A stretch of 64,000 nucleotides of DNA from Methanolobus sp. WCC5. GTDB taxonomy: Archaea; Halobacteriota; Methanosarcinia; Methanosarcinales; Methanosarcinaceae. The DNA is taken from contig NZ_CP146981.1 in assembly GCF_045690325.1 (NCBI RefSeq), positions 1,044,853 through 1,108,852 of the forward strand. Direction: 5' to 3'. Numbering within the stretch: position 1 is the first letter of the stretch; each line of letters begins with the position of its first letter. Both the position numbers and the translations under genes were made by a program. The notes under the pieces are model-generated. The model was not told where the DNA came from, made no database searches, and saw nothing but the letters and a program-made list of their open reading frames with translations. This document shows positions 46,554 through 64,000 of the stretch, one piece after another.

Positions 46554-47147
46554 TCAATTGCTTGTGTTTTTGACTATCTTTTCTATCCACAGCAGTACGA
46601 ACATCACTATGAGGAAAATGAACGTTACCTGCCATAGATAATAATGAACATAACTGAAAAGTGCAGGGTACACCATTCCCACAAAGGAAAGGAATACCAA
46701 CCTCAGCATGTTAACTATTATCATTGCCGGTACCCCCAGTGCTATGCCAAGGAACTTGTTACGCAGTGTGGTAGGATATGCAAGCACGCATCCGGCATAG
46801 ACCAGCAGCTCATACATTCCGGTACACTCATCTATTATCATCACGGAAAAACCATTCATATAAACAGACTGGCCATAGGATGAACTATCCACACCAAAAA
46901 CAGACAATACTCCTGAAAGAGCATTGGCAGTCATGGTACTCAGAAAAGTGAACCTATCCTGAAAGAAAACGTATACTCCTGTAAAAAGTACAATATAGAA
47001 CAGATATGTTCCCAGGAACTTTATTACACGCCTGTTCCTTTCAAGAAAAGGAAAAAAGTCATACCTGCTGAAGAAAGAATTACTATCTGCCTTTTCTATA
47101 GTTTTATGTTTCCTGGCACCTTTTAAAGACCTGCTTTTTTTAGCCAT
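46554..47147 (-). CDS. Exosortase/archaeosortase-family membrane protein (short form)
   Basis: 197 aa, polytopic. Contains a C-x-G motif (IIDECTGMYE) and an N-x-x-R motif (VNMLRLVF), which as I recall are the conserved Cys/Arg signature of the family. Lies next to two proteins ending in VPxxxP-type sorting signals. Confidence 0.5.
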   Translation of the reverse strand: MAKKSRSLKGARKHKTIEKADSNSFFSRYDFFPFLERNRRVIKFLGTYLFYIVLFTGVYVFFQDRFTFLSTMTANALSGVLSVFGVDSSSYGQSVYMNGFSVMIIDECTGMYELLVYAGCVLAYPTTLRNKFLGIALGVPAMIIVNMLRLVFLSFVGMVYPALFSYVHYYLWQVTFIFLIVMFVLLWIEKIVKNTSN

Positions 47148-47189
47148 ATTCCCTCCAAGAAAAAAGAAACTATGAAAAAGGGAAAGGAA

Positions 47190-48770
47190 TTAGTCACGGC
47201 GTCTAAGCGTGACAATTCCAAGTGCAGCCAGTATTCCTATCATCATCACCATACCCAGTGGCGTCAGCAATGGAACAACCGGCTGGCAGTGGTAATGGCT
47301 TGGATCCTCGTCGTTTACAGTGTTACCTGCATCGTCCTCTCCTGTCACCGTAGCAATGTTCTTGTAGAGCGGGACACATTCCTCAACTGTGGCAGTGACC
47401 TCATAGGTCCAGGTCTCCCCAACATCCAGAATGTCATCAGCATTCATGCTCTTTGAGATGATATTGGCAGCAGGGATAACTCCAAGCTTGTCATCGACAA
47501 CAACAATGTCCTTCAAAGGCACATTTCCTGTATTGGTGACAAAGTACTCCCATGTTACAGTTTCACCCACATCTATCTTAGGGCCGCTTGGGAAATCAGC
47601 ATCAAAGCCATTTGTATGCTTCTCTATATCGATATCCGGCTCACACCTTACTATATAGTGGCTTGGATCACTGTCTGTTACGGGAATTCCCAGCCAGTCC
47701 GCATCGACCTCACCGATGTTGGCATACTGTCCGCAGTCTGCTATACCTGTCATCTGGTACACCCACAGCTCACCTACATCCAGAACATCGTCATTGTTAA
47801 TGCTCTTGGAGATTATGTTTGCAGCCGGTACGCCTCCAAGCTTGTTGTCAGTAACTACCACGTTGCTAAGTGGCACATTCCCAACGTTGGTTACTCTGTA
47901 TGTCCAGGTAACTGCCTGTCCGGGAGCAAGGCTTGGACCTGTAGGTGTATCTGCATCAAAACCATTGGTCCATTTCTCTATATCTACATCCGGATTGGGT
48001 ATGGTCACAAATACATCTGCAATATCCTCACCTATAAGGCCACCGGTTATGGGGTCCCTATCGTCTTGTGCACCTGCTGTAACACGTATTAGTAGTGTTG
48101 CACCTGGGCTTAGATCAAAACTATTACCAAGATTTAGAATCTTGATCTCATAGACAAGTCCGTTCGCTGCATCTACATCAGCTGCTGTCAAAGTGGTTGT
48201 TCCGTCCCCCACATCCGCAACAGTCCAGTCATTGTTTTGAATGCTTATTCTTGTCGCTTTTGAGCCTTGCATTATCCTTATGTTGAAGAACTCATCTGCG
48301 CCAATACCATCCACATTATTTGGAGTGATTGCTCCCCTTGTATCGGAGAATTCCAGGCTATTATAAGGATCTCCATCCCCATCAAGATCACCGGGCAGAC
48401 CATATACAGTACAGAGACCGTATAGTGTATCAGTCATAAAATCATAGCGTGCATATATTCCTTCTATATCATAGCCACTTTCATCTGGCCCTACTGTAGC
48501 CATGTTCTCATTGAAACCAGTACCTGAGTCGCTCACCCGATCTTCATCGTACCACATCCCATTCTGGAAAATCACCATTTTGTCCCCGAATGGACCATCA
48601 GGGTTATAGGTTGATCCTTCCGTCTGACCATAACTCCAGTTCCCGTTCCACTCCCCAACTCCACGCACCCCATCAACGGTTATTGCCATGGCACTGGGGG
48701 TGGCGAACAAAACTATCAATATTGCGAACATTACATGTAATATGTTCATTATTTTCAACTCCCATCTCAT
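47190..48770 (-). CDS. Secreted surface protein: conserved N-terminal head domain, DUF11-type repeats and VPxxxP-type C-terminal sorting signal
   Basis: Signal peptide. Head domain about 80% identical to that of the giant neighbour. Three DUF11-like modules (D.D.EK.TNG.DAD…TW.Y.VTNTGNV). C-terminus is VVPLLTPLG followed by a TM helix and RRRD. Confidence 0.75.
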   Translation of the reverse strand: MRWELKIMNILHVMFAILIVLFATPSAMAITVDGVRGVGEWNGNWSYGQTEGSTYNPDGPFGDKMVIFQNGMWYDEDRVSDSGTGFNENMATVGPDESGYDIEGIYARYDFMTDTLYGLCTVYGLPGDLDGDGDPYNSLEFSDTRGAITPNNVDGIGADEFFNIRIMQGSKATRISIQNNDWTVADVGDGTTTLTAADVDAANGLVYEIKILNLGNSFDLSPGATLLIRVTAGAQDDRDPITGGLIGEDIADVFVTIPNPDVDIEKWTNGFDADTPTGPSLAPGQAVTWTYRVTNVGNVPLSNVVVTDNKLGGVPAANIISKSINNDDVLDVGELWVYQMTGIADCGQYANIGEVDADWLGIPVTDSDPSHYIVRCEPDIDIEKHTNGFDADFPSGPKIDVGETVTWEYFVTNTGNVPLKDIVVVDDKLGVIPAANIISKSMNADDILDVGETWTYEVTATVEECVPLYKNIATVTGEDDAGNTVNDEDPSHYHCQPVVPLLTPLGMVMMIGILAALGIVTLRRRD

Positions 48771-49001
48771 GAAGAATATACTTATTAATTATGAATTGGT
48801 CACCACGATATATAGCGATGCAGCAAACAAAGTTCGTTATCATTGTTAAGAAACTCAGCTCAGTAAAAAAGTCCTTTTCTCAGAACAATGTAAAAGCAGA
48901 ATAAAAACAACCAAAAAAATAATTTTGGTTTTTTTCCAATGATAAAAAAATCATTCTAGAAAAAACAATAAGACATGTTCTAAGAAAAAGAAAAGGAGGA
49001 A

Positions 49002-52000
49002 TTAGTCCCTCCTTCTTAGATAGAACGCACCTGCAAGTCCAAGGACTGAGATCAATATCATCATTCCGACAGGACTTAGCAGTGGAACGACCGGCTGGCA
49101 GTAGTAGTGAGCCACATCCTCATCTGATACCTCAGTTCCTTCAAACTCACCTGTGACAATTGCAGTGTTCTTATGCTGGGGCACGCATTCGGTTACAGTG
49201 CCCTTCAGTTCGTAGGTCCACACCTCGCCTGGGTCCAGTATGTCGTCATTGTTTATGCTCTTTGAAATGATACTAGATGCAGGTATCGTACCAAGTTTGT
49301 CATCAACAACAACTACATCATCCAGAGGGACATTACCGGTGTTCTTAACAACGAATTTCCAGGTAATGCTATCGCCCACTGCAAGGAGGATACCAGGTGC
49401 CTGATCAGCATCATTTCCATTGATATATTTCTCAATGTCAATGTCTGGTACACAGTTCACTCTGTAGTGGCTTGGGTCAGAGTCTGTTACCGGAATGGAA
49501 CCAAAGTGACCTACTACATCGCCCACATTTGCGTACTGACCACATTCTGCTGTTCCTGTTGACTGATAGATCCAGACCTCACCTGGCATGAGTGTATCGT
49601 CGCCATTGCCTTTGTCAACTATGTTGCTTATAGTTCCAAGCTGGTCATCTGTAACGGTTATGTTTGTCAGATGTACATTACCTGTATTCCTGACAACATA
49701 TTCCCAGGTAACTTCCGCACCATAGGCAAGTGTAGGTCCGGGTGCACTGTCAGCATCGAAACCATTTGTCGACTTCTCTATATCGATATTTGGTGCACAA
49801 ACCACATTATAATGGCTTGGATCACTGTCATTGACTGTGGTAGATCCATAATCACCTGTCACCGTACCAAGGTTAGCATATTGTCCGCATGAAGCACTGC
49901 CCGTAGCCTGGTAAGTCCAAGTCTCACCGACGGAAAGTATGCCGTCACCATCTCCGTTGTTCACAATGTTACCAATCACACCCAGTTTATCGTCGGTTAC
50001 AACGATATTGCTGAGGTTGACATTTCCAGTGTTGGTCACAACATAGGTCCAGGTAACAGCATCACCAATTCCCAGTGATGGACCAGGTGCACTGTCAGCA
50101 TCCTCACCATTGGTTGCCTTCTCGATATCAATTGAGGGAGAAGCACCGAAGTAGTGGCTTGGATCCTCGTCAGTGACAGTGATACCGTTGTAATCACCTG
50201 TAACATTACCGATATTGGCGTACTGGCCTGCAACTGCAACACCGTTGGCTGAGACCTCGGTGCTCGCACCGACTGCAAGGTCACCGATAACTGAGATAAC
50301 CCCAAGGATATTATCAGTTACAGTGACGTTGACAAGATCAACATTACCCGTATTGGTGACGTTATAAGTCCAGGTGACACTGTCTCCCACAGGGATGAAA
50401 GGTCCGGTAGGATCATCAGCATCCGCGCCATTGGTTGCCTTCTCAATATCAATTGATGGAGAGGCACCGAAGTAGTGGCTTGGATCCTCATCAGTGACCG
50501 TGATACCGTTGTAATCACCTGTTACATTACCGATGTTGGCGTACTGGCCTGCAACTGCAACACCGTTGGCTGAGACCTCAGTGCTCGCACCGACTGCAAG
50601 GTCACCGATAACTGAGATAAGTCCAAGAATATTATCAGTTACAGTGACGTTGACAAGATCAACATTACCCGTATTGGTGACGTTATAAGTCCAGGTGACA
50701 CTGTCTCCCACAGGGATGAAAGGTCCGGTAGGATCATCAGCATCCGCGCCATTGGTTGCCTTCTCAATATCAATTGATGGAGAGGCACCGAAGTAGTGGC
50801 TTGGATCCTCATCAGTGACCGTGATACCGTTGTAATCACCTGTTACATTACCGATGTTGGCGTACTGGCCTGCAACTGCAACACCGTTGGCTGAGACCTC
50901 AGTGCTCGCACCGACTGCAAGGTCACCGATAACTGAGATAAGTCCAAGAATATTATCAGTTACAGTGACGTTGACAAGATCAACATTACCCGTATTGGTG
51001 ACGTTATAAGTCCAGGTGACACTGTCTCCCACAGGGATGAAAGGTCCGGTAGGATCATCAGCATCCGCGCCATTGGTTGCCTTCTCAATATCAATTGATG
51101 GAGAGGCACCGAAGTAGTGGCTTGGATCCTCATCAGTGACCGTGATACCGTTGTAATCACCTGTTACATTACCGATGTTGGCGTACTGGCCTGCAACTGC
51201 AACACCGTTGGCTGAGACCTCAGTGCTCGCACCAACTGCAAGGTCACCTATCACAGATATCTCACCAAGAATATTATCAGTTACAGTGACGTTGACAAGA
51301 TCAACATTACCCGTATTGGTGACGTTATACGTCCAGGTGACACTGTCTCCCACAGGGATGAAAGGTCCGGTAGGATCATCAGCATCCTCACCGTTGGTGG
51401 CCTTCTCGATATCAATTGAGGGAGAGGCACCGAAGTAGTGGCTTGGATCCTCGTCAGTGACAGTGATACCGTTGTAATCACCTGTAACATTACCGATGTT
51501 GGCGTACTGGCCTACAACTGCAACACCGTTGGCTGACACCTCGGTACTCTCACCGGCTGCAAGGTCACCGATAACTGAGATGACTCCAAGGATATTGTCA
51601 GTTACAGTGACGTTGACAAGATCAACATTACCGGTATTGGTGACGTTATAAGTCCAGGTGACACTGTCTCCCACAGGAATGAAAGGTCCGGTTGGAATGT
51701 CAGCATCCTCACCATTGGTGGCCTTCTCAATATCAATTGAGGGAGAGGCACCGAAGTAGTGGCTTGGATCCTCATCAGTGACAGTGATACCGTTGTAATC
51801 ACCTGTAACATTACCGATGTTGGCATACTGGCCTGCAACTGCAACACCGTTGGCTGACACCTCGGTACTCTCACCGGCTGCAAGGTCACCTATCACAGAT
51901 ATCTCACCAAGAAGGTTGTCAGTTACAGTGACGTTGACAAGATCAACATTACCCGTATTGGTGACGTTATAAGTCCAGGTGACACTGTCTCCTACAGGAA

Positions 52001-55000
52001 TGAAAGGTCCGGTAGGACTGTCAGCATCCTCGCCATTGGTGGCCTTCTCAATATCAATTGAAGGAGAGGCACCGAAGTAGTGGCTTGGATCCTCATCAGT
52101 GACCGTGATACCGTTGTAATCACCTGTAACATTACCGATGTTGGCGTACTGGCCTGCAACTGCAATGCCGTTGGCTGACACTTCAGTGCTCGCACCGACC
52201 GCAAGGTCACCTATCACAGATATCTCACCAAGAAGGTTGTCAGTTACAGTGACGTTGACAAGATCAACATTACCCGTATTGGTGACGTTATAAGTCCAGG
52301 TGACACTGTCTCCTACAGGAATGAAAGGTCCGGTAGGACTGTCAGCATCCTCGCCATTGGTGGCCTTCTCAATATCAATTGAAGGAGAGGCACCGAAGTA
52401 GTGGCTTGGATCCTCATCAGTGACCGTGATACCGTTGTAATCACCTGTAACATTACCGATGTTGGCGTACTGGCCTGCAACTGCAACTCCGTTGGCTGAG
52501 ACCTCGGTGCTCGCACCAACTGCAAGGTCACCTATCACAGATATCTCACCAAGGATATTGTCAGTTACAGTGACGTTGACAAGATCAACATTACCCGTAT
52601 TGGTGACGTTATACGTCCAGGTAACACTGTCTCCCACAGGAATGAAAGGTCCGGTTGGAATGTCAGCATCCTCACCATTGGTTGCCTTCTCGATATCAAT
52701 TGAGGGAGAGGCACCGAAGTAATGGCTCGGATCCTCATCAGTGACCGTGATACCGTTGTAATCACCTGTCACATTACCGATATTGGCGTACTGGCCTGCT
52801 GCTGCAATGCCGTTGGCTGACACTTCAGTGCTCGCACCGACTGCAAGGTCACCGATAACAGAGATCACACCAAGGATATTGTCAGTTACAGTGACGTTGA
52901 CAAGATCAACATTACCCGTATTGGTGACGTTATACGTCCAGGTAACACTGTCTCCCACAGGGATGAAAGGTCCGGTAGGATCATCAGCATCCTCACCATT
53001 GGTTGTCTTCTCAATATCAATTGATGGAGAGGCACCGAAGTAGTGGCTCGGATCCTCATCAGTGACCGTGATACCGTTGTAATCACCTGTTACATTACCG
53101 ATATTGGCGTACTGGCCTGCAACTGCAACACCGTTGGCTGACACCTCGGTACTCTCACCGGCTGCAAGGTCACCGATAACTGAGATAACTCCAAGGATAT
53201 TGTCAGTTACAGTGACGTTGACAAGATCAACATTACCGGTATTGGTGACGTTATAAGTCCAGGTGACACTGTCTCCCACAGGGATGAAAGGTCCGGTAGG
53301 ATCGTCAGCATCCTCACCATTGGTAGCCTTCTCGATATCAATTGAGGGAGAGGCACCGAAGTAGTGGCTTGGATCCTCATCAGTGACCGTGATACCGTTG
53401 TAATCACCTGTAACATTACCGATGTTGGCGTACTGGCCTGCAACTGCAACTCCGTTGGCTGAGACCTCAGTGCTCGCACCGACTGCAAGGTCACCGATAA
53501 CTGAGATGACTCCAAGGATATTGTCAGTTACAGTGACGTTGACAAGATCAACATTACCGGTATTGGTGACGTTATACGTCCAGGTGACACTGTCTCCCAC
53601 AGGGATGAAAGGTCCGGTTGGATCGTCAGCATCCTCGCCGTTTGTGGCTTTCTCGATATCAATTGATGGACATTCGCCGAAGTAGTGGCTTGGGTCCTCA
53701 TCGGTTACAATTACCGCTTTATATTCCCCGGTAACTGTAGCGTTGTTGGCATACTGACCGCACTCGGCAATTCCTGTAGCTTCATAAACCCAGATCTCAT
53801 CAACATCAAGAATAGCATCTTCGTTGACATCACCACTCTGGTAAACAGGTATGACACCCTGATCATCTATCACTGATATATTGCTGAGCGGCACATTACC
53901 GGTGTTGTTCACCACATAGGTCCACGTGACGGTAGCACCCTGCAGGATACCAGGACCTGGTGCTTCATCAGCATCCTCACCATTGGTTGCCTTCTCAATA
54001 TCAATGTCAGGACATTCACCGAAGTAGTGGCTTGGATCCGTGTCAAATACTGGGATCACGTCGAAGAAACCAACTGCTGTTGCGTTGTTCACATACTGAC
54101 CACATTCAGCGATGCCTGTAGCTTCAAAGATCCATGATTCACCTATCGAAAGGATATCGTCCCCATCACCCTGATCAATGATATTGGTAATAGGACCAAG
54201 TTTGTCATCAATGACACTTATATTTAGCAGAGGAACATCACCTGTGTTTGTTACAACATAAGTCCACGTGACATTCTCACCTTCGGGTATCCCCGGGCCT
54301 GGTGCATTATCTGCATCCTCGCCATTGGTTGATTTCTCAAGATCAATGTCAGGACTTGGTATGGTTACAAATACATCTGCAATATCTTCTCCTATAAGAC
54401 CACCAGTTATGGGATCCCTATCGTCTTGTGCACCTGCTGTAACACGTACAATTAATGTTGCACCCGGACTTATATCGAAATTATTGTTAATACCATTAAT
54501 TTTTATCTCATAGACAAACTGATCAAGATCACCCTCATAATCGTTAATTGGATGATATGCAATACCGCATGCTGCATCTATATCTGTTGCTGTCAGAGTG
54601 GTTGTCCCATCCCCCACATCCACAACATCCCAGGCATTATTTTGAATACTTATTCTTGTGGCCTTATCACCTTGTATTAGCCTGATGTTAAAGAACTCAT
54701 CTGCACCAATACCATCCACATTATTTGGAGTGATTGCCCCCCTGGTATCGGAGAATTCCACGCTATTATATGGATCCCCATCCCCGTCAAGATCACCGGG
54801 AAGACCATATACCGTACACAAACCATATAGTGTATCGGTCATAAAATCATAACGCGCATATATTCCTTTAATATCATAGCCACTTTCATAAGGTCCTACA
54901 GTAGCCATATTCTCATTGAAACCAGTTCCTGAATCCCTCATCGGATCTTCATCAGACCAGTTCCCCGCTTGAAAAATCACCATTTTGTCCCCGAAAGGAC

Positions 55001-55199
55001 CATTTTGTTTATAGTCTGTACCGTTGAACTGACCATAAGCCCAACTTTCGTTCCATTCATCAACACTTCTTATACCATCTATAGTAACAGCTACAGATGT
55101 TCCAGAAATTGTAATCAATATCAACGTAATAACAACAAGTAAACTATATTTTGTCATGTTTGCCCCACCCTTTATAACTAAAAGAGGTATTCTTACCAA
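49002..55199 (-). CDS. Giant (2065 aa) surface protein with about 16 DUF11-type domains, including 11 near-identical 107-aa tandem units, and a VPxxxP-type C-terminal sorting signal
   Basis: Signal peptide and paralogous head domain. Repeats begin SPSIDIEKATNGEDAD…TWTYNVTNTGNV…DPSHYFGA. C-terminus is VVPLLSPVG followed by a TM helix and RRRD. One uninterrupted ORF of 6.2 kb. Confidence 0.85.
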   Translation of the reverse strand: MVRIPLLVIKGGANMTKYSLLVVITLILITISGTSVAVTIDGIRSVDEWNESWAYGQFNGTDYKQNGPFGDKMVIFQAGNWSDEDPMRDSGTGFNENMATVGPYESGYDIKGIYARYDFMTDTLYGLCTVYGLPGDLDGDGDPYNSVEFSDTRGAITPNNVDGIGADEFFNIRLIQGDKATRISIQNNAWDVVDVGDGTTTLTATDIDAACGIAYHPINDYEGDLDQFVYEIKINGINNNFDISPGATLIVRVTAGAQDDRDPITGGLIGEDIADVFVTIPSPDIDLEKSTNGEDADNAPGPGIPEGENVTWTYVVTNTGDVPLLNISVIDDKLGPITNIIDQGDGDDILSIGESWIFEATGIAECGQYVNNATAVGFFDVIPVFDTDPSHYFGECPDIDIEKATNGEDADEAPGPGILQGATVTWTYVVNNTGNVPLSNISVIDDQGVIPVYQSGDVNEDAILDVDEIWVYEATGIAECGQYANNATVTGEYKAVIVTDEDPSHYFGECPSIDIEKATNGEDADDPTGPFIPVGDSVTWTYNVTNTGNVDLVNVTVTDNILGVISVIGDLAVGASTEVSANGVAVAGQYANIGNVTGDYNGITVTDEDPSHYFGASPSIDIEKATNGEDADDPTGPFIPVGDSVTWTYNVTNTGNVDLVNVTVTDNILGVISVIGDLAAGESTEVSANGVAVAGQYANIGNVTGDYNGITVTDEDPSHYFGASPSIDIEKTTNGEDADDPTGPFIPVGDSVTWTYNVTNTGNVDLVNVTVTDNILGVISVIGDLAVGASTEVSANGIAAAGQYANIGNVTGDYNGITVTDEDPSHYFGASPSIDIEKATNGEDADIPTGPFIPVGDSVTWTYNVTNTGNVDLVNVTVTDNILGEISVIGDLAVGASTEVSANGVAVAGQYANIGNVTGDYNGITVTDEDPSHYFGASPSIDIEKATNGEDADSPTGPFIPVGDSVTWTYNVTNTGNVDLVNVTVTDNLLGEISVIGDLAVGASTEVSANGIAVAGQYANIGNVTGDYNGITVTDEDPSHYFGASPSIDIEKATNGEDADSPTGPFIPVGDSVTWTYNVTNTGNVDLVNVTVTDNLLGEISVIGDLAAGESTEVSANGVAVAGQYANIGNVTGDYNGITVTDEDPSHYFGASPSIDIEKATNGEDADIPTGPFIPVGDSVTWTYNVTNTGNVDLVNVTVTDNILGVISVIGDLAAGESTEVSANGVAVVGQYANIGNVTGDYNGITVTDEDPSHYFGASPSIDIEKATNGEDADDPTGPFIPVGDSVTWTYNVTNTGNVDLVNVTVTDNILGEISVIGDLAVGASTEVSANGVAVAGQYANIGNVTGDYNGITVTDEDPSHYFGASPSIDIEKATNGADADDPTGPFIPVGDSVTWTYNVTNTGNVDLVNVTVTDNILGLISVIGDLAVGASTEVSANGVAVAGQYANIGNVTGDYNGITVTDEDPSHYFGASPSIDIEKATNGADADDPTGPFIPVGDSVTWTYNVTNTGNVDLVNVTVTDNILGLISVIGDLAVGASTEVSANGVAVAGQYANIGNVTGDYNGITVTDEDPSHYFGASPSIDIEKATNGADADDPTGPFIPVGDSVTWTYNVTNTGNVDLVNVTVTDNILGVISVIGDLAVGASTEVSANGVAVAGQYANIGNVTGDYNGITVTDEDPSHYFGASPSIDIEKATNGEDADSAPGPSLGIGDAVTWTYVVTNTGNVNLSNIVVTDDKLGVIGNIVNNGDGDGILSVGETWTYQATGSASCGQYANLGTVTGDYGSTTVNDSDPSHYNVVCAPNIDIEKSTNGFDADSAPGPTLAYGAEVTWEYVVRNTGNVHLTNITVTDDQLGTISNIVDKGNGDDTLMPGEVWIYQSTGTAECGQYANVGDVVGHFGSIPVTDSDPSHYRVNCVPDIDIEKYINGNDADQAPGILLAVGDSITWKFVVKNTGNVPLDDVVVVDDKLGTIPASSIISKSINNDDILDPGEVWTYELKGTVTECVPQHKNTAIVTGEFEGTEVSDEDVAHYYCQPVVPLLSPVGMMILISVLGLAGAFYLRRRD
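50140..53672. repeat. Tandem array of about 11 near-identical 321-bp coding repeats (approximate bounds)
   Basis: The period of 321 bp is shown by identical antisense ORFs at 50318, 50639 and 50960, and by the repeating protein units. Several consecutive units appear 100% identical. Confidence 0.85.
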
Positions 55200-55403
55200 G
55201 AAATAAATTGTATACGTATGTATTTATTAGTACAACAAACAATCATAAGTAGGAATATTAAGTAACATAGATACAGTACTTCACTAATTTTTGAATCCAG
55301 CTGTTTAAACTTATATTGAAATCGGATGAAAATAGAAATTGATTCATGTGAAAGGCCTTTAAATGAATAAAAGGGAACTGAAAATCTATGGACATGGTCT
55401 ATA

Positions 55404-56495
55404 CGACAATTATAGTTAATAACTTAACTTTTCTAACTTATTATCCAGAAACTTCTCAATCCATTTTCTTGCGAAGCTAAGCTTTGATGAACAACTAATA
55501 AACGTCTCAGCAATCAGATTCCTCATATGATCAAGATCTTTGACAAAATTGCAGGAAATAACTCTTTTAACGCTCTTCCATATGAATTCAATAGGATTCA
55601 AGTCTGGTGAATACGGAGGCAAATAGACCAATTCGATATCATTTGCCATTGCAAAATCTACTGTGTATTTTGCCCGATGTGACCTGAAGTTGTCAAGAAT
55701 GATAACTATTCTCTTTCCAATGTTGCTGTTTTTGATAGTTGATAGAAACGAACATACGTCCTCTTTAGTTGAATGTTCTTTAAAATCGATTACTGAAGTA
55801 CCATTCAATGCATAAAATCCAAACGAGTTTGCTTTAATTCTAGTTGAATTTTTGAACATAACGGGTTTATTGAAAGACCATAAACGAACTGTATTTGATG
55901 TGGTTTGTGGGGATGATTCATCAAGAAAACCGATTACGTAATCATTATTGATTACTGGTAAGTTTTTTTTAAACGATCTTCTGCATCATCTGGTCTTCGA
56001 TAATCATGCGCATAGGGTTTGGCATGATACATGCCAAACTTCTTCAAGATAACCAATATTTGCTTAATGGTGTATTGAACCGTAAATTCATTATGGATAA
56101 GTTCCTGAACTTCTTTTGTAGACCAATCATTTCTTTCATGCAGCATAGCCTTTAGTTCTTCTTTTTGGTCATCAGTGAGTTTTGAAGGACAACCTCCTGA
56201 AAACCTGGGAATCAATCCTTCATACCCGTCTTGATTCCATCGTTCTTGCCATTGATATGCAACTGGTGTAGATATGCCAACAAGTTTAGCTGCTTCGTTA
56301 ACAGAAGCACCTTCATAACGATGTTTAATAAAATACAAACGTTGTAGGACTCGTGTATCTTTCTCTAATGACTTGATACGTTTAAGCAATTCTTCTGATG
56401 ATAGATGATGCTCTATCGTAATTTGTTCAGGTCTAGCCATAAAGTATAGTTGCATTTGATTAATAATAAATGTTTGGTTAAGAACTATAATTCCG
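55404..56495. mobile_element. IS630/Tc1-mariner-family insertion sequence, about 1.09 kb (approximate ends)
   Basis: Imperfect terminal inverted repeats CGACAATTATAGTT..CTTAAC (55404-55428) and GTTAAG..AACTATAATTCCG (56477-56495). Encodes an HTH N-terminal part and a DDE_3 C-terminal part of a transposase. Confidence 0.7.
55416..56455 (-). CDS. IS630-family transposase in two frames (orfA 55952-56455 HTH; orfB 55416-55859 plus upstream extension, DDE), probably joined by a -1 frameshift
   Basis: orfA ends …DRLKKTYQ* across an A8 run (55963-55970, T8 on the + strand). The -1 frame is open from just upstream of the A-run (…NLPVINNDYVIGFLDESSPQTT…) into orfB, which carries LDNFRSHRA … LPPYSPDLNPIEFIWK. 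The fused length is about 340 aa. Confidence 0.7.
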
Positions 56496-56684
56496 ATTAT
56501 AATTCATCCGCTTGTTTCTCTATTTAAAAGCAGCAAATAAATTCTTATTATCATCTTCTTGTAAAATTGAATTATAGTACAACATTTTTAAACGTGGGCA
56601 ATTGACTAATACAATCAATCATTAATTTAAAAATGAGGATTTATTCTGTTCTGTGGGATAGAAACAGATAAAAGGAGATATTAT

Positions 56685-57467
56685 ATGAGATACAAACTAT
56701 TAAAAAGGGCTCTAGTGCTCCTTCTAGGAGTAGCACTTGCAATGGCATCTGGATGTGCCAACATTACAGATTCACAAAAGACATCTGGGGACTTAATAGA
56801 TAATGATATGGAAGAATCATCAAGTGAATCTAACCCCTATTCTGCCATAATACCAACTGATTTTGCAATTCCGATTGAAAATCCGTATTTTCCCTTAAAC
56901 ATTGGTACAATCTACATATATGATGGTGAATCAGATGAAAAAGATATTAAAGTTGAAATATATGTCAGTGACCAGACAAAGGAAATAATGGGTGTGGAGA
57001 CTACAGTTGTCAGACAACAAAAATGGAAAGATGGAGAGCTTATTGAACACACTCTGGACTGGTATGCCAATGATAACAAAGGAAATGTTTGGTATTTCGG
57101 TTCAGATTCCAAAGAATACGATTATGATGCAGTTGATATAGTGAGCACAGTAGCTTCCTGGGAGGCGGGGGTTGATGGTGCAGAACCAAGAATCTTTATG
57201 GGAAATTATTCTCAGGTCGGAGATGTTTACCGCCAGGAATACTACGAACGAGGAGGTGAAAAAGAATTAGAAGTGCTAAGTATCGATGCGCCTGTTTCCG
57301 TTGAATATGGGCCATTTGAAAATTGTATACAAATAAAGGAATTGATTCCATTTAACCCCGAAATAGAAAAATACAAATATTATGCCAGTGGCGTGGGGCT
57401 TGTTCTAGAAGAGTCTGTTATGGAAGGAAATGATAGAATTGAACTTGCAGAAATAATAAATAGATAA
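56685..57467 (+). CDS. Secreted hypothetical protein with lipoprotein-like signal peptide
   Basis: The MRYKLLKRALVLLLGVALAMASGC signal has a Cys directly after the hydrophobic core. GGAGAT SD upstream. No family recognised. Confidence 0.5.
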   Translation: MRYKLLKRALVLLLGVALAMASGCANITDSQKTSGDLIDNDMEESSSESNPYSAIIPTDFAIPIENPYFPLNIGTIYIYDGESDEKDIKVEIYVSDQTKEIMGVETTVVRQQKWKDGELIEHTLDWYANDNKGNVWYFGSDSKEYDYDAVDIVSTVASWEAGVDGAEPRIFMGNYSQVGDVYRQEYYERGGEKELEVLSIDAPVSVEYGPFENCIQIKELIPFNPEIEKYKYYASGVGLVLEESVMEGNDRIELAEIINR

Positions 57468-57573
57468 AGGAAGGCATTTTCCTTTATTTTATGTTTAAAC
57501 TCGTCTAACATTGAATGATTTAAACAGAGTTGTATCCAAAGCAGCTATACAACCAATAAAACAATTTATAATC

Positions 57574-58161
57574 TCATTCAAATTTCAGATCAATTTCACC
57601 GGCCAGTATATCTTCAATAATCTTTAAAGATTCATTACTGATCTTTGTTCTTTTTCCTTTGTCACGCTTTTCCATATTATTGTAATCAAAGAAATGCTTG
57701 CACACACCATGGGCTTTGTCCAGAGGATCATTGTCCTGCAGAAAAACAACACAACCTTCCAGACCGATCACCTTTTGAACATAATTTAATGCATAAGATA
57801 CCCCATAGTGGCATCCTACACCGGGAAGAAAATATTTGTATCCTTCATTCTTTTTCTGCTTAAGCCACGGGAAAAGATTGGAATCACTATCAATTATGAA
57901 TATCCTGTCCTTTGTGAATCCTCTTTCCTTCAGGATGTCTATCATGTCACCAAGAGAACAGGGCACATTACAGGTTCTGTCCTCAAGTTTCAAACAGCTC
58001 TGATTCTTCCTTGACTTTTGTTTGCATGATACCGGACAAGCATAATATCCCAAAGGTTTGGCACAGTAAGGGAGAAAAGCAATACAACTGTCAAGCTCAT
58101 CTGTGACTATAGTTTGTATATCCAGGGATGGGGATGAAATAGCTATACTGCAGTTAAGCAA
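57574..58161 (-). CDS. Cys-rich hypothetical protein, paralog 1 (possibly DUF116-like)
   Basis: Shares FLPYCAKP.G…CNVPCSLG…IFIID.DSNLFPWL…GVCK… with paralog 2. Homology continues in-frame upstream to about 58300 without an ATG. Confidence 0.5.
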   Translation of the reverse strand: MLNCSIAISSPSLDIQTIVTDELDSCIAFLPYCAKPLGYYACPVSCKQKSRKNQSCLKLEDRTCNVPCSLGDMIDILKERGFTKDRIFIIDSDSNLFPWLKQKKNEGYKYFLPGVGCHYGVSYALNYVQKVIGLEGCVVFLQDNDPLDKAHGVCKHFFDYNNMEKRDKGKRTKISNESLKIIEDILAGEIDLKFE

Positions 58162-58421
58162 ACTTTTATTGATATGATTGTAACTTAGTTTTTTCTCGAT
58201 CAGCTTTTTGTTTAACGAATACGGAACAAATGAGTATAGCTTCTCTAAAATCGATACTCTCGTTATTAACCCCCCTTGAATGCTCTTTCAGCAAACACTT
58301 ATTCCACAAACAACTATAGCTGAATTCTCGTTCTAAAAGCTTGGCGTTAAAACAAAATGCGGCATTATATGTCTTTTTTTCCAGAAATCGTGAAATATAA
58401 AAACATAATCGTAAAATAAAC

Positions 58422-58615
58422 GTAACTATTCAGCCTACCCATTTCAGCCGATTGATGCGGATTTCATCAAATTCAAGGTGTTGAGTCCTAAATTAATTCA
58501 AAACAAAAAAAGCAATCAATCGGCACATTTAAAATAAATTAGTCATACAATATTTACATATCATTTTTTTAACACAACGGCGACAGGTGTTGATTCTATC
58601 AGGCTGAATAGTTAC
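58422..58615. repeat. Nested perfect inverted repeats: outer 15 bp (GTAACTATTCAGCCT / AGGCTGAATAGTTAC), inner 10 bp (GCCGATTGAT / ATCAATCGGC)
   Basis: Outer arms lie at 58422-58436 and 58601-58615. Inner arms lie at 58447-58456 and 58514-58523. The element sits in the AT-rich spacer between the two Cys-rich paralogs. Confidence 0.6.
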
Positions 58616-58687
58616 AAATAAACAAAATAAATAAACAGAAGAAAAAATGGTTAAATGAAAATTAATACCAGCTATAAAAATAGATAA

Positions 58688-59422
58688 TCACATACTGGAA
58701 GGGACTTCATTTGAATGCGGGGATTTATGAGGTACTTCCTCAACGCTTTCGTTTTGATAATTACCTGAAAGGATCCGGTCCATCAATATTATCGTCTCTT
58801 TGTGAACCTTGGTGCGTTTTCCCTTATCTATGCCCTCCATTCCAAGATAATCGTTCATGCATTTGCAGACGCCGTTTTCTTTGTCATCAGGGCAAAAATC
58901 ATCTACAAAGGCTATGCACCCTTTGTAGCCAAGCTTCTTACCTATGTAATCAATGGCATAGGATACACCGTATTTGCATCCGGTACCCGGCATAAAATAT
59001 TCATAGCCTTCCTTCCTTTTCTGCACAAGCCATGGGAAAAGATTGGAATCCCTGTCTATTATGAAAATCTGTTCCTTTTTAAAACCATGTTTTGTGAGAA
59101 CATCCACCATCTCACCAAGAGAACAGGGCACATTACACTTGCCACCGGATACCTTGACACATTTCTGGTTCTTCCTGTTATTGATCTTGTCCGATACAGG
59201 ACACTCATGTTCCCCCATCGGTTTGGCACAATATGGCAAAAAGGCAACACATTTATCAAGATCATCTCTTACTACTTTGTTTATATCAAGGGAATGAGGA
59301 TATAAGGCAAGGTGATTTTTTATAAGCAGATCATCCTGTTTTTTGAATTTGCACTTCCATCTTACTATCTTTTGATGGATCGAATAAGGAACCAATCCAT
59401 ATATTAATTCTCGGGTCAGCAT
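58688..59422 (-). CDS. Cys-rich hypothetical protein, paralog 2 (possibly DUF116-like)
   Basis: 244 aa, about 55% identical to paralog 1 over the Cys-rich core. Has an N-terminal extension of about 50 aa. Confidence 0.5.
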   Translation of the reverse strand: MLTRELIYGLVPYSIHQKIVRWKCKFKKQDDLLIKNHLALYPHSLDINKVVRDDLDKCVAFLPYCAKPMGEHECPVSDKINNRKNQKCVKVSGGKCNVPCSLGEMVDVLTKHGFKKEQIFIIDRDSNLFPWLVQKRKEGYEYFMPGTGCKYGVSYAIDYIGKKLGYKGCIAFVDDFCPDDKENGVCKCMNDYLGMEGIDKGKRTKVHKETIILMDRILSGNYQNESVEEVPHKSPHSNEVPSSM

Positions 59423-59739
59423 TTTTTTCCTCCATTGACGTTTGGGGCTGTACTTCTTTGGAGTTGTCCAGAGTAAACCTATGTCCCAATTTTTTAACTT
59501 TATCTCATAGGTAGCTTGGTCATCCGTATAAATATCATGACCCTATATACATTTATCCATGTACATAAACTATACATAGAATAAATACTGTGAACATGCT
59601 TATAATTAATTAAGACAGATACTGTACAAAATGCCTGTATTTTATGTACAAGTTTCAGTATTGAACAAAATATTTTTGTATATTAAACCGATTTACAAAA
59701 TTATATTCAGAGTCAGGTACATATAAACAAAGGAAAGGA

Positions 59740-59937
59740 CTAAAGACCCAGTTCTTCTGCAATCTCCTGGAACTCTTTTCCCTTTGCAGTTGTTACATAC
59801 AGATTTCCTTTATGTTCTATCAGTCCTTTTTCCTCCAGCATTGTAAGATACCTGTTAACCATGTCAAAATTCAGATTTGCATTGTAAACTATGTGTGTCT
59901 TTTTAGCCCCCTCCAATGCAGCTTTTAATATCTCCAC
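59740..59937 (-). CDS. Mini winged-HTH protein (paralog of 46118-46306)
   Basis: 65 aa, …ALEGAKKTHIVYNANLNFDMVNRYLTMLEEKGLIE…. GTG start. The same 20-nt upstream element as the first copy. Confidence 0.5.
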   Translation of the reverse strand: MEILKAALEGAKKTHIVYNANLNFDMVNRYLTMLEEKGLIEHKGNLYVTTAKGKEFQEIAEELGL

Positions 59938-60062
59938 ACTAATGGCAGTTCTGCTTCTCCTAATATGATCACATCCATAGCTACAGTCTTTTCTACCACG
60001 CCAGGTACCCCACCATGAATAAAAGTTGGAAAGAGTCCATTCAATCCAACATCAATACACTG

Positions 60063-60716
60063 TTATTTCCTGGACCTGTATCCATACAGACCAATAACAA
60101 CTCCTCCAAGGACAAGACCTATTAGAAGGATCATGCTGTTGGTCCCGGATGTGCTTACAGGAAGGTATCCTTCATCTGCAACCTCTGACTCTGCATTTTC
60201 CTGAGTGCTGGGAAGTGAGGATTCTGCTTCCGTGTCCATGGATGACTCAGTAGTTATTTCATCTGCAATTTCTGTGGTATCAGCTCCACCAGAGCCAAAG
60301 CCTCCACCTCCTCCACCGGCAACCTGGGAAGAGGGTTTTTCTGTATTCGCTGCTGGCTGGCTTGTTGCACTGATTTCAAATGACACTGCCTCCCCACTAT
60401 GATAATTTCTAAGATCCAGGGTCTGTGATTCCACTCCGTCCACATAAACCTTGACAAGATCATAGCCTGTGGGTATTCCCAGCCTGTTGCTGCGCTTATC
60501 GCCGATAATACCTTCTGTGGTCACAGTCGTCTCACCTATAACCTTCCCATCAACAACTATCGCTACCTCTGTCCCTACAACTGCCGGCTTCCCATCTACC
60601 AGCAGATTACCTTCCAGGACCAATGGAGGTTCGTTAGCTGCAGCAGGTACGACCATGAATGCAAATAACACTATAAATACTTGTAATAAAGCTCTTTTTT
60701 TATCACCACTTATCAT
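60063..60716 (-). CDS. Secreted protein with beta-rich N-domain, Gly/acidic linker and C-terminal TM anchor
   Basis: Signal peptide from MISGDKKRALLQVFIVLFAFMVVPAAA. C-terminus is …SMILLIGLVLGGVVIGLYGYRSRK. Located directly downstream of the cohesin protein. The track ORF starts at 60764. Confidence 0.5.
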   Translation of the reverse strand: MISGDKKRALLQVFIVLFAFMVVPAAANEPPLVLEGNLLVDGKPAVVGTEVAIVVDGKVIGETTVTTEGIIGDKRSNRLGIPTGYDLVKVYVDGVESQTLDLRNYHSGEAVSFEISATSQPAANTEKPSSQVAGGGGGGFGSGGADTTEIADEITTESSMDTEAESSLPSTQENAESEVADEGYLPVSTSGTNSMILLIGLVLGGVVIGLYGYRSRK

Positions 60717-60793
60717 ACGTCCCACCTTCGATAAATCAAAAATGCAGTGAGAAGATACTCCCACTGCGATGTATTTCTTGTTTCATTGAGCTG

Positions 60794-63043
60794 TCAGGCC
60801 AATATGCACTCCTCGTCTACGAATACATAGTATCCTTCGTATACGTTCATGCTAAAGACATCGGTACCTACCTGGTTACCATTGATGACGCCTTCCACTC
60901 CGTTGTATCCCACATAGGCATACTCACTTGCAGAAGTTACCCAGGGTCCTTTGACCTTGATGTAGCTGTCATCGATGGTTGCAAGCCCGATCTCTGCAGA
61001 TAGCTCGACCTTTGCATTGTGGCCAATGGCGTTCCATCCCGGATAAAGCATCAGCGATGGTGGCGTGGATGGCACCTTCGGTGTCAGATAGTCCTCAAGA
61101 ATGACAACCTCTCCACTCATGTTGTTGTGTACCCAGTATGCCTTCAATGGCTCGAAGGTGGTTGGTACAACCATCATTCCAACAGATGCATCATCATAGA
61201 ACACATAATCAACTTCTGTGTCGGTAAAGTCCTGGAGCACAAAGTCGATACTTGCATTCTCAAGTGTTTCTGGGAACGATATAAGGTTCCATCCCGGCAG
61301 GAGTATTATTCCTTCTGGGTTGTACACCTCAACACATACGATGTGGAATGCTGAATCCTGTCCGTCATCCAATGTTGCCTTGATCAGGTACTGGCCATCA
61401 GGTACACTGGTTGTGTCAAGCACAGCAGTCCAGCCATCAGAGCCGTCGTTGTCTGTTGCGAATACTGTCCAGACACCGCCTACCTCATCGTCAATACAGT
61501 TGCCATTGGTATCTGCAAAGACAGCAAAGGTTGCGGTAAGGATGTCATCCTGTCCGGAATTGTCCACAACTTCAACTATCTGTGTCTTTGAGACAACATC
61601 ACCATCTGCATGGGAGACGATCTCCGGACCTGGCACAACGTTTGGTACTGTGGAAACTTCAACAGTTCCATCGGTGACCACAACTCCCGGAATTGCTGCA
61701 TTGGCCTGGTCCTGAAGAACCACGTTCATCAGGTCAAGGTCGTAGACACCGTCTGCTGCACCTGCCTTCACTTCGAACTCAATGGTTAACATTGTTCCGG
61801 CTGTTGGCGCGTAGACCCCACCTGTGGCTGCAATACCATAGGTTATGGTACCTGCACCGTCGTCACCACTTCCTGGTGCTTCCAGTGCCCCGGCTCCAAG
61901 CAGGTTCTCATTGGTTATGCTGTTAACCATGAGTACTGAAGCATCGTAGCCCAGCTGCAGGCTCACAGCACGCAGGTTCTTGTCGGCTGAATCGACCATC
62001 ACTTCAACCTGGAATGTCTCACCGATATCCACAGGTCCGCTTGCAGCTGGAGATACCATTACCTCCGGCATTACAACAGGACCGTCAGCTACCTGTACGG
62101 TAGCATCAGTGACAACAACTCCGGCGATTGCCGTGTTGGTCTCGTCCATAAGTCCCACATTGTCCAGATCAAGGTTGTAGATGCCATTTGCAGCACCAGC
62201 CTTCACTTCGAATTCGATGGTCAGCATAGTACCGGCCTGCGGCGTGTAAGCCCCTGCGGTGGAGGCAATACCATATGTAATGGTACCTGCACCGTCGTCA
62301 CCACTGCCTGGTGCTACAAGTGCCCCTGCTCCAAGCAGGTTCTCGTTGGTCACACCATTTACCATGAGAACTGCAGCATCGTATTTCAGCTGCAGGTTCA
62401 CAGCACGGAGGTTCTCATCAGCAGAATCCACCTCTACCTCTACCTGGAACGTATCTCCCGGAGCAACCGGACCGCTCACTGCAGGAGTGATCTTCACTTC
62501 AGGATCATCGGTTGGCGGTATTACATCATCACCAACTTTTACTGTTCCGTCCATGACAGCCACCCCGGCAATAACCGTGCTGGTCTGGTCTAAGAGTACC
62601 ACATTCATTAGGTCAAGGTCATAGATACCATCAGCAGCCCCGGCTTTCACCTCGAAATCGATGGTTATCATGGTACCTGCTACTGGTGCATATGGACCGG
62701 ATGTGGCTGCAATACCATAGGTAATGGTTCCTGCCCCATCGTCACCACTGGCTGGCGCTACCAGAGCACCGGCACCAAGCAGGTTGTTGTTGGTTATGCT
62801 ATTGACCTGAAGTACCGCCGGATCATAGTCCAGCTGCAGGTTCACGGCACGTAGGTCAGAAGCATCGGAATCCACCAATATGCTGACCTGGAACGTATCA
62901 CCTGCATCGTACTCATTGGTTTGTGGATCTACTGACACCGATGGTGCAGCCGCTGCAAGTCCTACGCCTACCATGAAACATGCACAAAATATTAAAAGGA
63001 TGGCAGCAGATCCTGCCATTCCTTTCCATGTTACTTTTGTCAT
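60794..63043 (-). CDS. Secreted scaffoldin-like protein with three tandem cohesin-like domains plus a C-terminal domain
   Basis: Signal peptide MTKVTWKGMAGSAAILLIFCACFMVGVGLAAAA, with a GGTG SD before the ATG at 63043. Three modules of about 125-130 aa each (…GDTFQV.V.VDS…LRAVNLQL.YD..VL.VN…GTITYGIA…) match the cohesin pattern. Confidence 0.65.
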   Translation of the reverse strand: MTKVTWKGMAGSAAILLIFCACFMVGVGLAAAAPSVSVDPQTNEYDAGDTFQVSILVDSDASDLRAVNLQLDYDPAVLQVNSITNNNLLGAGALVAPASGDDGAGTITYGIAATSGPYAPVAGTMITIDFEVKAGAADGIYDLDLMNVVLLDQTSTVIAGVAVMDGTVKVGDDVIPPTDDPEVKITPAVSGPVAPGDTFQVEVEVDSADENLRAVNLQLKYDAAVLMVNGVTNENLLGAGALVAPGSGDDGAGTITYGIASTAGAYTPQAGTMLTIEFEVKAGAANGIYNLDLDNVGLMDETNTAIAGVVVTDATVQVADGPVVMPEVMVSPAASGPVDIGETFQVEVMVDSADKNLRAVSLQLGYDASVLMVNSITNENLLGAGALEAPGSGDDGAGTITYGIAATGGVYAPTAGTMLTIEFEVKAGAADGVYDLDLMNVVLQDQANAAIPGVVVTDGTVEVSTVPNVVPGPEIVSHADGDVVSKTQIVEVVDNSGQDDILTATFAVFADTNGNCIDDEVGGVWTVFATDNDGSDGWTAVLDTTSVPDGQYLIKATLDDGQDSAFHIVCVEVYNPEGIILLPGWNLISFPETLENASIDFVLQDFTDTEVDYVFYDDASVGMMVVPTTFEPLKAYWVHNNMSGEVVILEDYLTPKVPSTPPSLMLYPGWNAIGHNAKVELSAEIGLATIDDSYIKVKGPWVTSASEYAYVGYNGVEGVINGNQVGTDVFSMNVYEGYYVFVDEECILA

Positions 63044-63065
63044 GATTTCACCTCTTACATCAGGC

Positions 63066-64000
63066 TTAAGACTGATATACTCCTGCAAACTCTACAAAGT
63101 CAAAGAAGTCTATTACGCCATCATCATTGAAGTCGAAGATTGCGTTGTAGTTGCTGTCACCCATTACTGAGTTGTAGCAAGCTGCAAATTCAACGAAGTC
63201 AAAGAAGTTGACAACTTCATCACCGTTGTAGTCACCCTTCATCTCTTCAACCGGTGGTTCATTGTTGTTGCCAGCAGGTACACCGCCATTCATGTACAGT
63301 CCTGTACCATCCAGTGGGTTGTGCGTGAACATGAGCCTCTGCATTACATCTGGCTCTTCACATACCACAGAGTTCGGTGCAAGGAATGAACTGGTCAGCA
63401 GGTAGTCACCTGTTCCGCCTGCATTTGGTACATCCGGATAGACAAACTCCTTGTAGAAGTCAGGCATAGTCCTGATGTGCAGCCATACCCAGCTCTGAAC
63501 TGGTGATACAGAGTTGGATGAGGGTTGGATCATACCTTCACAAAGGATCTCCAGCAGGTTGGTGTGGAACCTTTCCTCAATGTCCTTACCGGTGAAGTAT
63601 ATCTCAAGGGCCGGGACAGTGAACATGCGCTCGGCAATGGTATCCCATGAACTGTCTATGTACATATCCTGATACCAGAGCAGATCATCAAATCCTGGTG
63701 TTCCTACTCCGGCAGCAAGTATCTGGCCATAGTAGCAGGTTGTGGTCTCATCTGGCACGGAGTGTGGCACATCGATGTCATCGATCATGACGTACTCGCG
63801 GTTGAATGGTGGCAGTACAGGAATGATCTCATAGTTATCGACCATCTTCTTAACGACTGAGAGGTCGTTCAGTGCAACATCCTGGTGTTCTGGTATCGGG
63901 TTCCTTATGGTAATGTACTTGACATTGTCCTCAGCACTACCAAAGATAGCTGCAACGTCATACTCGGCACCGTCAACGAAGAATGTCTCACCTGTGTGAA
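63066..64000 (-). CDS. Dockerin-containing protein; partial, N-terminus lies beyond the window
   Basis: The C-terminus has a duplicated Ca-binding dockerin repeat (GDYNGDEVVNFFDFVEFAACY … FDFNDDGVIDFFDFVEFAGVY). The frame stays open upstream of the M at 63845 through to the window edge. Confidence 0.7.
   Translation of the reverse strand, partial: HTGETFFVDGAEYDVAAIFGSAEDNVKYITIRNPIPEHQDVALNDLSVVKKMVDNYEIIPVLPPFNREYVMIDDIDVPHSVPDETTTCYYGQILAAGVGTPGFDDLLWYQDMYIDSSWDTIAERMFTVPALEIYFTGKDIEERFHTNLLEILCEGMIQPSSNSVSPVQSWVWLHIRTMPDFYKEFVYPDVPNAGGTGDYLLTSSFLAPNSVVCEEPDVMQRLMFTHNPLDGTGLYMNGGVPAGNNNEPPVEEMKGDYNGDEVVNFFDFVEFAACYNSVMGDSNYNAIFDFNDDGVIDFFDFVEFAGVYQS

Follow-up and report, generated by a model that had tools for sequence, protein, structure and literature searches.

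We propose that three adjacent minus-strand genes at positions 60063-64000 of a 64,000-nucleotide (nt) stretch of the Methanolobus sp. WCC5 genome (NZ_CP146981.1; the whole stretch is called the window below) specify a dedicated non-cellulosomal cohesin-dockerin display system on the Methanolobus cell surface, a reading that we regard as probable on balance. Members of the host genus are methylotrophic methanogens. The three genes encode the C-terminal part of a dockerin-bearing protein (here called the cargo), a 749-amino acid (aa) protein with three cohesins (the scaffoldin), and a 217-aa membrane protein. The intergenic gaps are 22 nt between the dockerin gene and the scaffoldin gene and 77 nt between the scaffoldin gene and the third gene. 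An earlier sequence-only reading of the window had placed three genes at these positions, and their coordinates were confirmed on the minus strand. The three-gene arrangement is no chance pattern.

In the proposed mechanism, the secreted cargo (~1190 aa) would end in a symmetric Ca-binding dockerin, the three cohesins of the neighbouring scaffoldin would be its cognate receptors, and up to three cargo molecules would be held non-covalently on each scaffoldin. A C-terminal double 'GWN' domain would hold the scaffoldin at the cell envelope, with the 217-aa membrane-anchored protein as the leading candidate partner of that domain. The displayed cargo would be a structural or adhesive surface-layer component rather than an enzyme.

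Dockerin and cohesin modules and their probable pairing

The cargo protein ends in ...KGDYNGDEVVNFFDFVEFAACYNSVMGDSNYNAIFDFNDDGVIDFFDFVEFAGVYQS*, which matches the C-terminus quoted in the sequence-only reading, and contains two 22-residue repeats (GDYNGDEVVNFFDFVEFAACYN and DFNDDGVIDFFDFVEFAGVYQS) with a spacing of 33 residues and 14 of 22 positions identical. Loop positions 1, 3, 5, 9, and 12 read D-N-D-N-D in repeat 1 and D-N-D-D-D in repeat 2, and these positions are D or N in both repeats of all 16 Methanolobus-type orthologues examined. When the segment was searched against PDB with phmmer, the best match was the dockerin 2y3n_B (E 8e-7, 54 gapless columns spanning both repeats), with the CipA type II dockerin 2b59_B next (E 3.5e-4). 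The top six matches were all dockerins (these two, 3kcp_A, 5k39_B, 5g5d_B, and 4wi0_B), and generic EF-hand proteins entered the list only from E 0.04. We accept the dockerin identity because PDB ranks dockerins first and both repeats keep the D/N positions. The Pfam model Dockerin_1 (PF00404) was barely passed by the window fragment (E 9.4e-5, 23.0 bits against a cutoff of 22.9), and a homology search with the 64-aa dockerin alone gave one match. In cellulosomal dockerins, repeats that are kept alike go with a dual binding mode, and in the type I dockerins of C. thermocellum positions 10 and 11 are recognition residues. From lineage to lineage, the two repeats described here change together at positions 10, 11, and 13-18, where the variants FFDFVEFA, FDDFVEFA, FIDFVEFA, IIDFAAFA, LDDFRAFA, FTDLSAFG, and LKDLSAFA were found.

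The segment could instead be an EF-hand pair that binds Ca to stabilise the cargo structurally and does not bind cohesins, the cohesin-fold modules binding glycans or the S-layer, for example. The Pfam Dockerin_1 score at or under the threshold would fit such a role, as would weak EF-hand matches that overlap the dockerin segment and the different tail of some cargo-family members (P0002, P0004, P0012, and P0014), which consists of a single EF-hand plus a helix. We consider this explanation quite unlikely, since the best PDB matches are dockerins and run gapless across both repeats, adjacency to cohesin genes recurs in archaea and Chloroflexota, and the dockerin co-diverges with the adjacent cohesins irrespective of the cargo module (see below).

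The scaffoldin gene starts at an ATG preceded by a AGAGGTGA ribosome-binding site, and the only hydrophobic segment of its product by hydropathy (residues 6-38) is signal-like. Pfam Cohesin (PF00963) matched the protein in three stretches (142.1 bits against a cutoff of 24.1, E 1.7e-41), and identity among the three modules is 67-76%. A profile made from these and related cohesins had 17 PDB matches, all of them cellulosomal scaffoldin, adaptor, or anchoring proteins and only cohesins, the best being 1g1k_A (E 1.2e-9). TRF found no tandem repeat for the cohesins at the DNA level; the repeat is therefore visible only in the protein. The cohesins in the 749-aa protein are real, and the dockerin and three-cohesin assignments of the sequence-only reading were borne out: neither a lack of cohesin profile matches nor a loss of Ca-binding Asp/Asn positions in the dockerin repeats was seen. 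The 749-aa protein is 100% identical to the RefSeq Methanolobus sp. WCC5 "cohesin domain-containing protein"; its cohesin annotation pre-exists in RefSeq and is thus not new.

Related loci were collected by scanning species-representative genomes with an alignment of the cargo module, which yielded 29 loci (loci are numbered L001 and so on), and their gene content was compared by local BLAST and hidden Markov model (HMM) tables. The gene order cargo-dockerin, then two or three cohesins plus GWN domain (usually with an immunoglobulin (Ig)-like spacer), then signal peptide-beta domain-linker-transmembrane (TM) protein, then HTH_45 protein was found in 14 distinct Methanolobus/Methanosarcinaceae places, i.e., those whose contigs extend that far, including three copies from one genome. 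Beyond this core cluster there usually come genes for two Cys-rich paralogues, DUF7507 proteins, and archaeosortase B. The genome with three copies of the cluster (L011, L012, and L014) is that of Methanolobus sp. ZRKC3 (NZ_CP146982.1), and all three share the 'II' dockerin variant and a two-cohesin scaffoldin. Outside the Methanolobus-type loci, the contigs L019 and L020, of the type of the anaerobic methanotrophic archaea (ANME) group ANME-2, carry cargo-dockerin, then cohesin(s) plus Big_7 plus GWN, then a small anchored protein. The Anaerolineae loci L022 and L026 carry cargo-dockerin and then Pfam cohesin proteins, and in L023 and L031 the cargo modules and cohesins lie within one polypeptide.

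Beyond the window edge, the locus was taken from a near-identical metagenome contig (L001) and from M. bombayensis (L002). Upstream of the cargo gene is a gene for a 136-aa four-helix membrane protein, and then a gene for a ~510-aa protein with one cohesin (Pfam E 2.7e-13) and a PGF-CTERM-like end, consisting of APGF or QQAPGF, a hydrophobic segment, and KRK. Most Methanolobus loci extend upstream in this way, and the earlier description of the three genes as a complete set is therefore too narrow. The four-helix membrane protein (L001:1401-1817; L002:5713-6123), encoded between the PGF-CTERM cohesin and cargo genes, is highly conserved with the motif LLYIYAIGRIAFPFLLW; no family match was found for it, and NCBIfam gave nothing useful for it, for the PGF-CTERM cohesin protein, or for the products of the three window genes. 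An archaeosortase identity of the four-helix protein was ruled out, as it has no conserved Cys.

Pairwise dockerin identity correlates with pairwise scaffoldin-cohesin identity with r 0.95 across 11 clusters, and the partial r is 0.89 after removing the divergence of the cargo module and GWN domain; in the nine clusters with a PGF-CTERM cohesin, the dockerin has r 0.97 with the scaffoldin cohesins, 0.55 with the PGF-CTERM cohesin, and 0.45 with the cargo module, all of these being computed from phylogenetically non-independent pairs from 9-11 loci to which no p-value applies. In one comparison (L014 versus L002), the cargo module is 80% identical while the dockerin is 48% and the cohesins are 44% identical. 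This co-divergence is supportive of pairing and is not a statistical test. Judged from sequence, the dockerin and the adjacent cohesins probably fit each other.

The partner of the cargo dockerin might otherwise be the single cohesin of the upstream PGF-CTERM protein (archaeosortase A-type, lipid-anchored), in which case the three-cohesin protein would recruit other dockerin proteins from elsewhere in the genome and the true anchor would lie outside the window. We regard this as unlikely. The cohesin protein with the APGF/QQAPGF end does lie two genes upstream in most Methanolobus loci, and there are several dockerins per Methanolobus genome, as counted in PMC5244752. However, the PGF-CTERM cohesin gene and the neighbouring small membrane protein gene are missing from four otherwise intact clusters (L011, L012, L015, and L016), and for this reason we take both to be accessory. 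The PGF-CTERM cohesin also does not track the dockerin, as seen in the nine-cluster comparison above and between L003 and L004, where the dockerins are 98% identical and the PGF cohesins 42%. Both cohesin types may bind, so that pairing of the dockerin with the scaffoldin cohesins and pairing with the PGF-CTERM cohesin are mutually compatible.

Several further points, besides the non-independence of the identity pairs, weigh against a dedicated scaffoldin-based display system. Joint replacement by recombination would produce the same co-divergence pattern. The Pfam Dockerin_1 match is marginal, at 20.5 bits on the full-length near-identical orthologue of L001, and Pfam reported no Dockerin_1 match on the M. 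bombayensis (L002) orthologue. Methanolobus genomes hold further cohesins and dockerins (15 and 4 in M. tindarius by the count in PMC5244752), and cross-binding with these is possible. Fold searches with the GWN domain yielded only generic beta-sandwich matches, and its putative attachment role is read from domain architecture.

The cargo, the GWN domain, and the 217-aa membrane protein

The full cargo, including the N-terminus beyond position 64000, was obtained through the near-identical contig L001 (L001:2059-5625) and is ~1188 aa long, with a signal peptide, two modules, and the dockerin. The two tandem modules are ~540 aa each and ~54% identical to each other, and the window fragment comprises the C-terminal half of the second module plus the dockerin. 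The protein is acidic (pI ~4), and an alignment of 14 diverse cargo modules has 43 invariant positions. The module family is rare, with 17 matches among 5.8 billion clustered proteins, none of which has a protein name. The module profile had no match at E<=10 among PDB sequences, Pfam gave only sub-threshold FG-GAP and EF-hand matches, and the cargo did not match the Methanosarcinales S-layer profile DUF1608 (PF07752). Because of the tandem duplication, acidity, lack of enzyme signatures, and surface context, we tentatively suggest that the cargo may be a structural or adhesive surface-layer component and not an enzyme.

The cargo family is otherwise seen in Methanosarcinales, ANME, and Anaerolineae; one cargo-family fragment (P0002, 50% identical) carries the unexpected label 'Gammaproteobacteria bacterium'. 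Locus L005 (PWNJ01000058.1) is labelled 'candidate division CSSED10-310 bacterium', and the contig is probably mis-binned because its cargo and scaffoldin are 75-80% identical to the Methanolobus genes.

The last 175 residues of the scaffoldin form two units, each opening with L.PGWN.I, which together we call the GWN domain. It is the best-conserved part of the scaffoldin, with 72-75% identity where the cohesins drop to ~40%. A confident AlphaFold2 (AF2) model of the last 283 scaffoldin residues, with a predicted local distance difference test (pLDDT) score of 91, places two small beta domains after an Ig/fibronectin type III (FN3)-like domain. The GWN domain had no match in Pfam or NCBIfam. 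In a HMMER scan of 1.84 billion cluster representatives, 5990 proteins matched the GWN family at E<=1e-3, and 734 of them at E<=1e-10; the named examples are from Methanolobus, Methanococcoides, and Methanosarcina. In 145 of the 150 best-scoring representatives, no more than 15 residues follow the domain, and its passengers include cohesin, fasciclin, bMG10, PKD, DUF11, Big_7, S-layer DUF1608, NosD, and S8 peptidase domains. We read it as an attachment or sorting module because it is promiscuous and strictly C-terminal on otherwise unrelated secreted proteins; by this architecture, the GWN domain probably attaches surface proteins of Methanosarcinales to the cell surface, and the family (~6000 clusters) may be a general surface-attachment tag in that order.

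In ANME-1/Methanophagales-type and related contigs (L025 and L027-L030), a cargo protein without dockerin ends in a GWN-type domain with the signature GWNL..G...GYW, which was detected by an iterated local HMM. Independent profiles of the cargo-fused and the scaffoldin GWN domains aligned over 94 columns in hhalign (probability 96.3%, E 1.5e-9). Since the cargo module is joined covalently to a GWN domain there and would be joined to one through dockerin and cohesins in Methanolobus, this fusion is the strongest argument that the scaffoldin serves the Methanolobus cargo, and we take it as a clue that cargo and scaffoldin cooperate.

The 217-aa protein is hydrophobic in two segments only (residues 7-34 and 189-215) and has the tail YRSRK. 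It consists of a signal peptide, a ~95-aa beta-rich ectodomain, the stretch GGGGGF with an acidic linker behind it, and a C-terminal TM helix; this topology by hydropathy agrees with the secreted, C-terminally anchored protein of the sequence-only reading. Its gene always directly follows that of the scaffoldin, and the ectodomains of relatives are 40-92% identical to the window-type copy. An HMM built from Methanolobus sequences only matched the positional counterparts in L019 and L020 with E 1e-4 to 4e-4 among 1860 open reading frames (ORFs). The same earlier reading had made this protein the anchor of the set, an assignment that is plausible but was not supported: no dockerin occurs in the scaffoldin, which is likely to be attached through its own C-terminal double domain. 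The 217-aa protein is a conserved membrane-anchored member of the system and, by the conserved adjacency to the scaffoldin gene and only because of it, a plausible candidate for the GWN receptor. It was considered as a PGF-CTERM substrate of archaeosortase A and rejected, as it ends in ...GYLPVSTSGTNSMILLIGLVLGGVVIGLYGYRSRK without a PGF motif; no NCBIfam sorting signal matched it. The counterpart in L020 ends in PGF-CTERM (LPGFEAMF...RRRR).

A further-reaching version of the display system can be drawn, which we put forward as speculative and rather doubtful. It would be a self-contained archaeal surface-assembly system not described before, in which an ancestral or alternative cargo-GWN polypeptide, like that of the ANME-1-type archaea, had been split and rejoined by a private, co-evolving cohesin-dockerin pair with threefold multivalency. 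The GWN domain would be a general Methanosarcinales envelope targeting signal, its receptor the small membrane-anchored protein next door, and the cargo an outer lattice or an adhesin for aggregation or consortium formation.

Relation to known cohesin-dockerin systems

The Methanolobus system resembles the bacterial cellulosome (CipA/CipC of C. thermocellum and C. cellulolyticum) in the tandem cohesins on a non-catalytic secreted scaffoldin and in the C-terminal two-repeat Ca-binding dockerin, with repeats kept alike, on the protein that is recruited; cohesins and dockerin alike have cellulosomal modules as their best PDB relatives (1g1k_A, 2vn5_A, 2y3n_B, and 2b59_B). It differs from the cellulosome in having no enzymes, no carbohydrate-binding module (CBM), and no S-layer homology (SLH) or sortase anchoring, in the single dedicated cargo gene beside the scaffoldin gene, in the Methanosarcinales-type C-terminal domain, and in its host, an archaeon that does not degrade cellulose. 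A cellulosome-like complex of polysaccharide-degrading enzymes is for these genes highly improbable. The presence of cohesins and a dockerin and the Ig/FN3-like matches to glycoside hydrolase modules are all that speaks for it, whereas above-threshold profile searches found no glycoside hydrolase, CBM, or other carbohydrate-active enzyme (CAZyme) family in the cargo, the scaffoldin, or their neighbours, and there is one cargo type and no enzyme set. With neither CAZymes nor a CBM on the scaffoldin, the cellulosome reading was rejected.

Cohesin and dockerin modules in archaea are already known, and nothing is overturned here. Non-cellulosomal binding between cohesin and dockerin has been verified for Archaeoglobus fulgidus (Bayer 1999 and Haimovitz 2008, as cited in PMC9012536). 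That system is likewise archaeal and non-cellulosomal, and shows that such modules can function in archaea. A review quoted in PMC9012536 described the archaea surveyed by then as lacking multi-cohesin scaffoldins. In Methanolobus, in contrast to A. fulgidus, there are three cohesins, the cargo is encoded by a gene of its own, and the gene cluster is conserved.

Closer to the present case are the scaffoldin-like proteins of ANME, which carry a dockerin plus up to five cohesins, with ABC-transporter binding proteins or S-layer proteins as typical dockerin cargos (Chadwick et al. 2022, PMC9012536; Timmers et al. 2017, PMC5244752). The passages of these two papers that deal with the modules describe them as abundant in ANME and also present in related methanogens, state their functions as unknown, and assign no cognate pair or conserved cluster; the phrase "known in a few archaea" in the sequence-only reading is thus too low an estimate, and the RefSeq entry already carries a cohesin-domain name. 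The Methanosarcinales/ANME neighbourhood, multi-cohesin proteins, surface dockerins, and a proposed extracellular organisation are common to both the ANME proteins, as those passages portray them, and the Methanolobus genes. The ANME-2-type contigs L019 and L020 share the cargo family and the cohesin-Ig-GWN architecture with Methanolobus. In contrast to the ANME scaffoldins, the Methanolobus scaffoldin has no dockerin, and its cargo is an unannotated double module. A further comparison is with the Methanosarcina S-layer protein MA0829 (tandem DUF1608, tether, and C-terminal TM anchor; PDB 3u2h). Unlike MA0829, the Methanolobus cargo has no PF07752 match, and the modules and anchor would be on different polypeptides joined via cohesin and dockerin, the model used in this comparison being of low confidence.

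We did not find described in the literature the conserved cluster, the dedicated cargo family, the co-diverging pair, the cargo-GWN fusion, or the GWN family. Two sizeable families without Pfam or NCBIfam match emerge, i.e., the ~540-aa cargo module and the C-terminal GWN domain. The locus predicts a concrete 1:3 pair whose genes are neighbours and whose specificity varies naturally from species to species, and the existence of cultured Methanolobus isolates (e.g., M. bombayensis DSM 7082 and M. vulcani PL 12/M) makes the pairing question directly testable. An experiment on cohesin-dockerin partners is called for in passages of the genomics papers cited above (PMC9012536 and PMC5244752). If tight binding were true, a new orthogonal cohesin-dockerin pair would be available for protein engineering.

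Feature coordinates and neighbouring genes

Coordinates of the features of the cluster in the window, with the basis of each assignment or a remark.
Feature	Position	Strand	Basis or remark
Cargo gene 3' end (310 codons + stop)	63066..>64000	-	Open frame to window edge
Dockerin, two EF-hand-like 22-residue repeats	63069..63239	-	Pfam, PDB matches, D/N pattern
Scaffoldin, 749 aa: signal peptide, three cohesins, Ig-like domain, double 'GWN' domain	60794..63043	-	
Cohesin 1 (aa 34-170)	62534..62944	-	Local cohesin HMM, domain E ~6e-57
Cohesin 2 (aa 181-318)	62090..62503	-	Pfam, local cohesin HMM, PDB profile matches
Cohesin 3 (aa 326-463)	61655..62068	-	Pfam, local cohesin HMM, PDB profile matches
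Ig/FN3-like spacer domain (aa 467-574)	61322..61645	-	
C-terminal double 'GWN' domain, two ~85-aa beta units	60797..61321	-	Putative cell-surface attachment module
217-aa type I membrane protein	60063..60716	-	Hydropathy, family alignment, synteny
Hairpin followed by T-run	60744..60767	-	Consensus scan only
Small winged-helix protein, HTH_45/Sso10a family	59740..59937	-	Pfam, NCBIfam, synteny

A consensus scan found a hairpin with a 10-bp stem followed by ATTTTTGATT in the gap that separates the scaffoldin gene from the third gene. This element might act as a partial terminator or processing site and could uncouple the expression of the scaffoldin and the third gene.

The conserved core cluster ends with the HTH_45 gene, which is syntenic in the Methanolobus-type loci. 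Its product was recognised by Pfam (HTH_45, 2e-23) and by NCBIfam (Sso10a_fam, 82.8 bits with the cutoff at 60). In L002 it was found by gene calling, though BLAST listed no match in L002 or L010. A second HTH_45/Sso10a protein, 77% identical to the first, is encoded at 46118-46306 on the minus strand. The two may be dedicated regulators, because each ends a surface-protein sub-cluster on the downstream side.

Two paralogous Cys-rich proteins (57574-58161 and 58688-59422, minus strand) are ~56% identical and share the motif C..FLPYCAKP.G...CP; neither a Pfam or NCBIfam family nor a signal peptide was found for them. Synteny of their genes with the surface cluster extends to most Methanolobus loci. 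Within 46554-55199 (minus strand) there is an archaeosortase B gene (TIGR04144, 189 bits against a cutoff of 150), adjoined by genes for two DUF7507/CLIPPER surface proteins, one of 526 aa and one of 2065 aa with 16 repeats. Both end in PVVPLL[TS]P...RRRD, which is VPXXXP-CTERM-like, with a weak NCBIfam match (E 0.1). Archaeosortase B and these VPXXXP-type proteins at 46.5-55.2 kb agree with the placement of the three genes in a surface-protein island, as the sequence-only reading had it.

At 55416-57467, an IS630-type transposase is present as two overlapping ORFs (helix-turn-helix (HTH) domains, then DDE_3), beside which lies a plus-strand gene for a 260-aa lipoprotein-like product. Both the transposase and the lipoprotein-like gene are absent from the near-identical L001, which suggests a strain-specific insertion between the Cys-rich and DUF7507 genes. 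The G+C content is 48-50% in the cohesin-dockerin genes (60001-64000) and 36-37% in the adjacent 6 kb (54001-60000), which holds the insertion sequence (IS) element, the Cys-rich genes, and the HTH gene.

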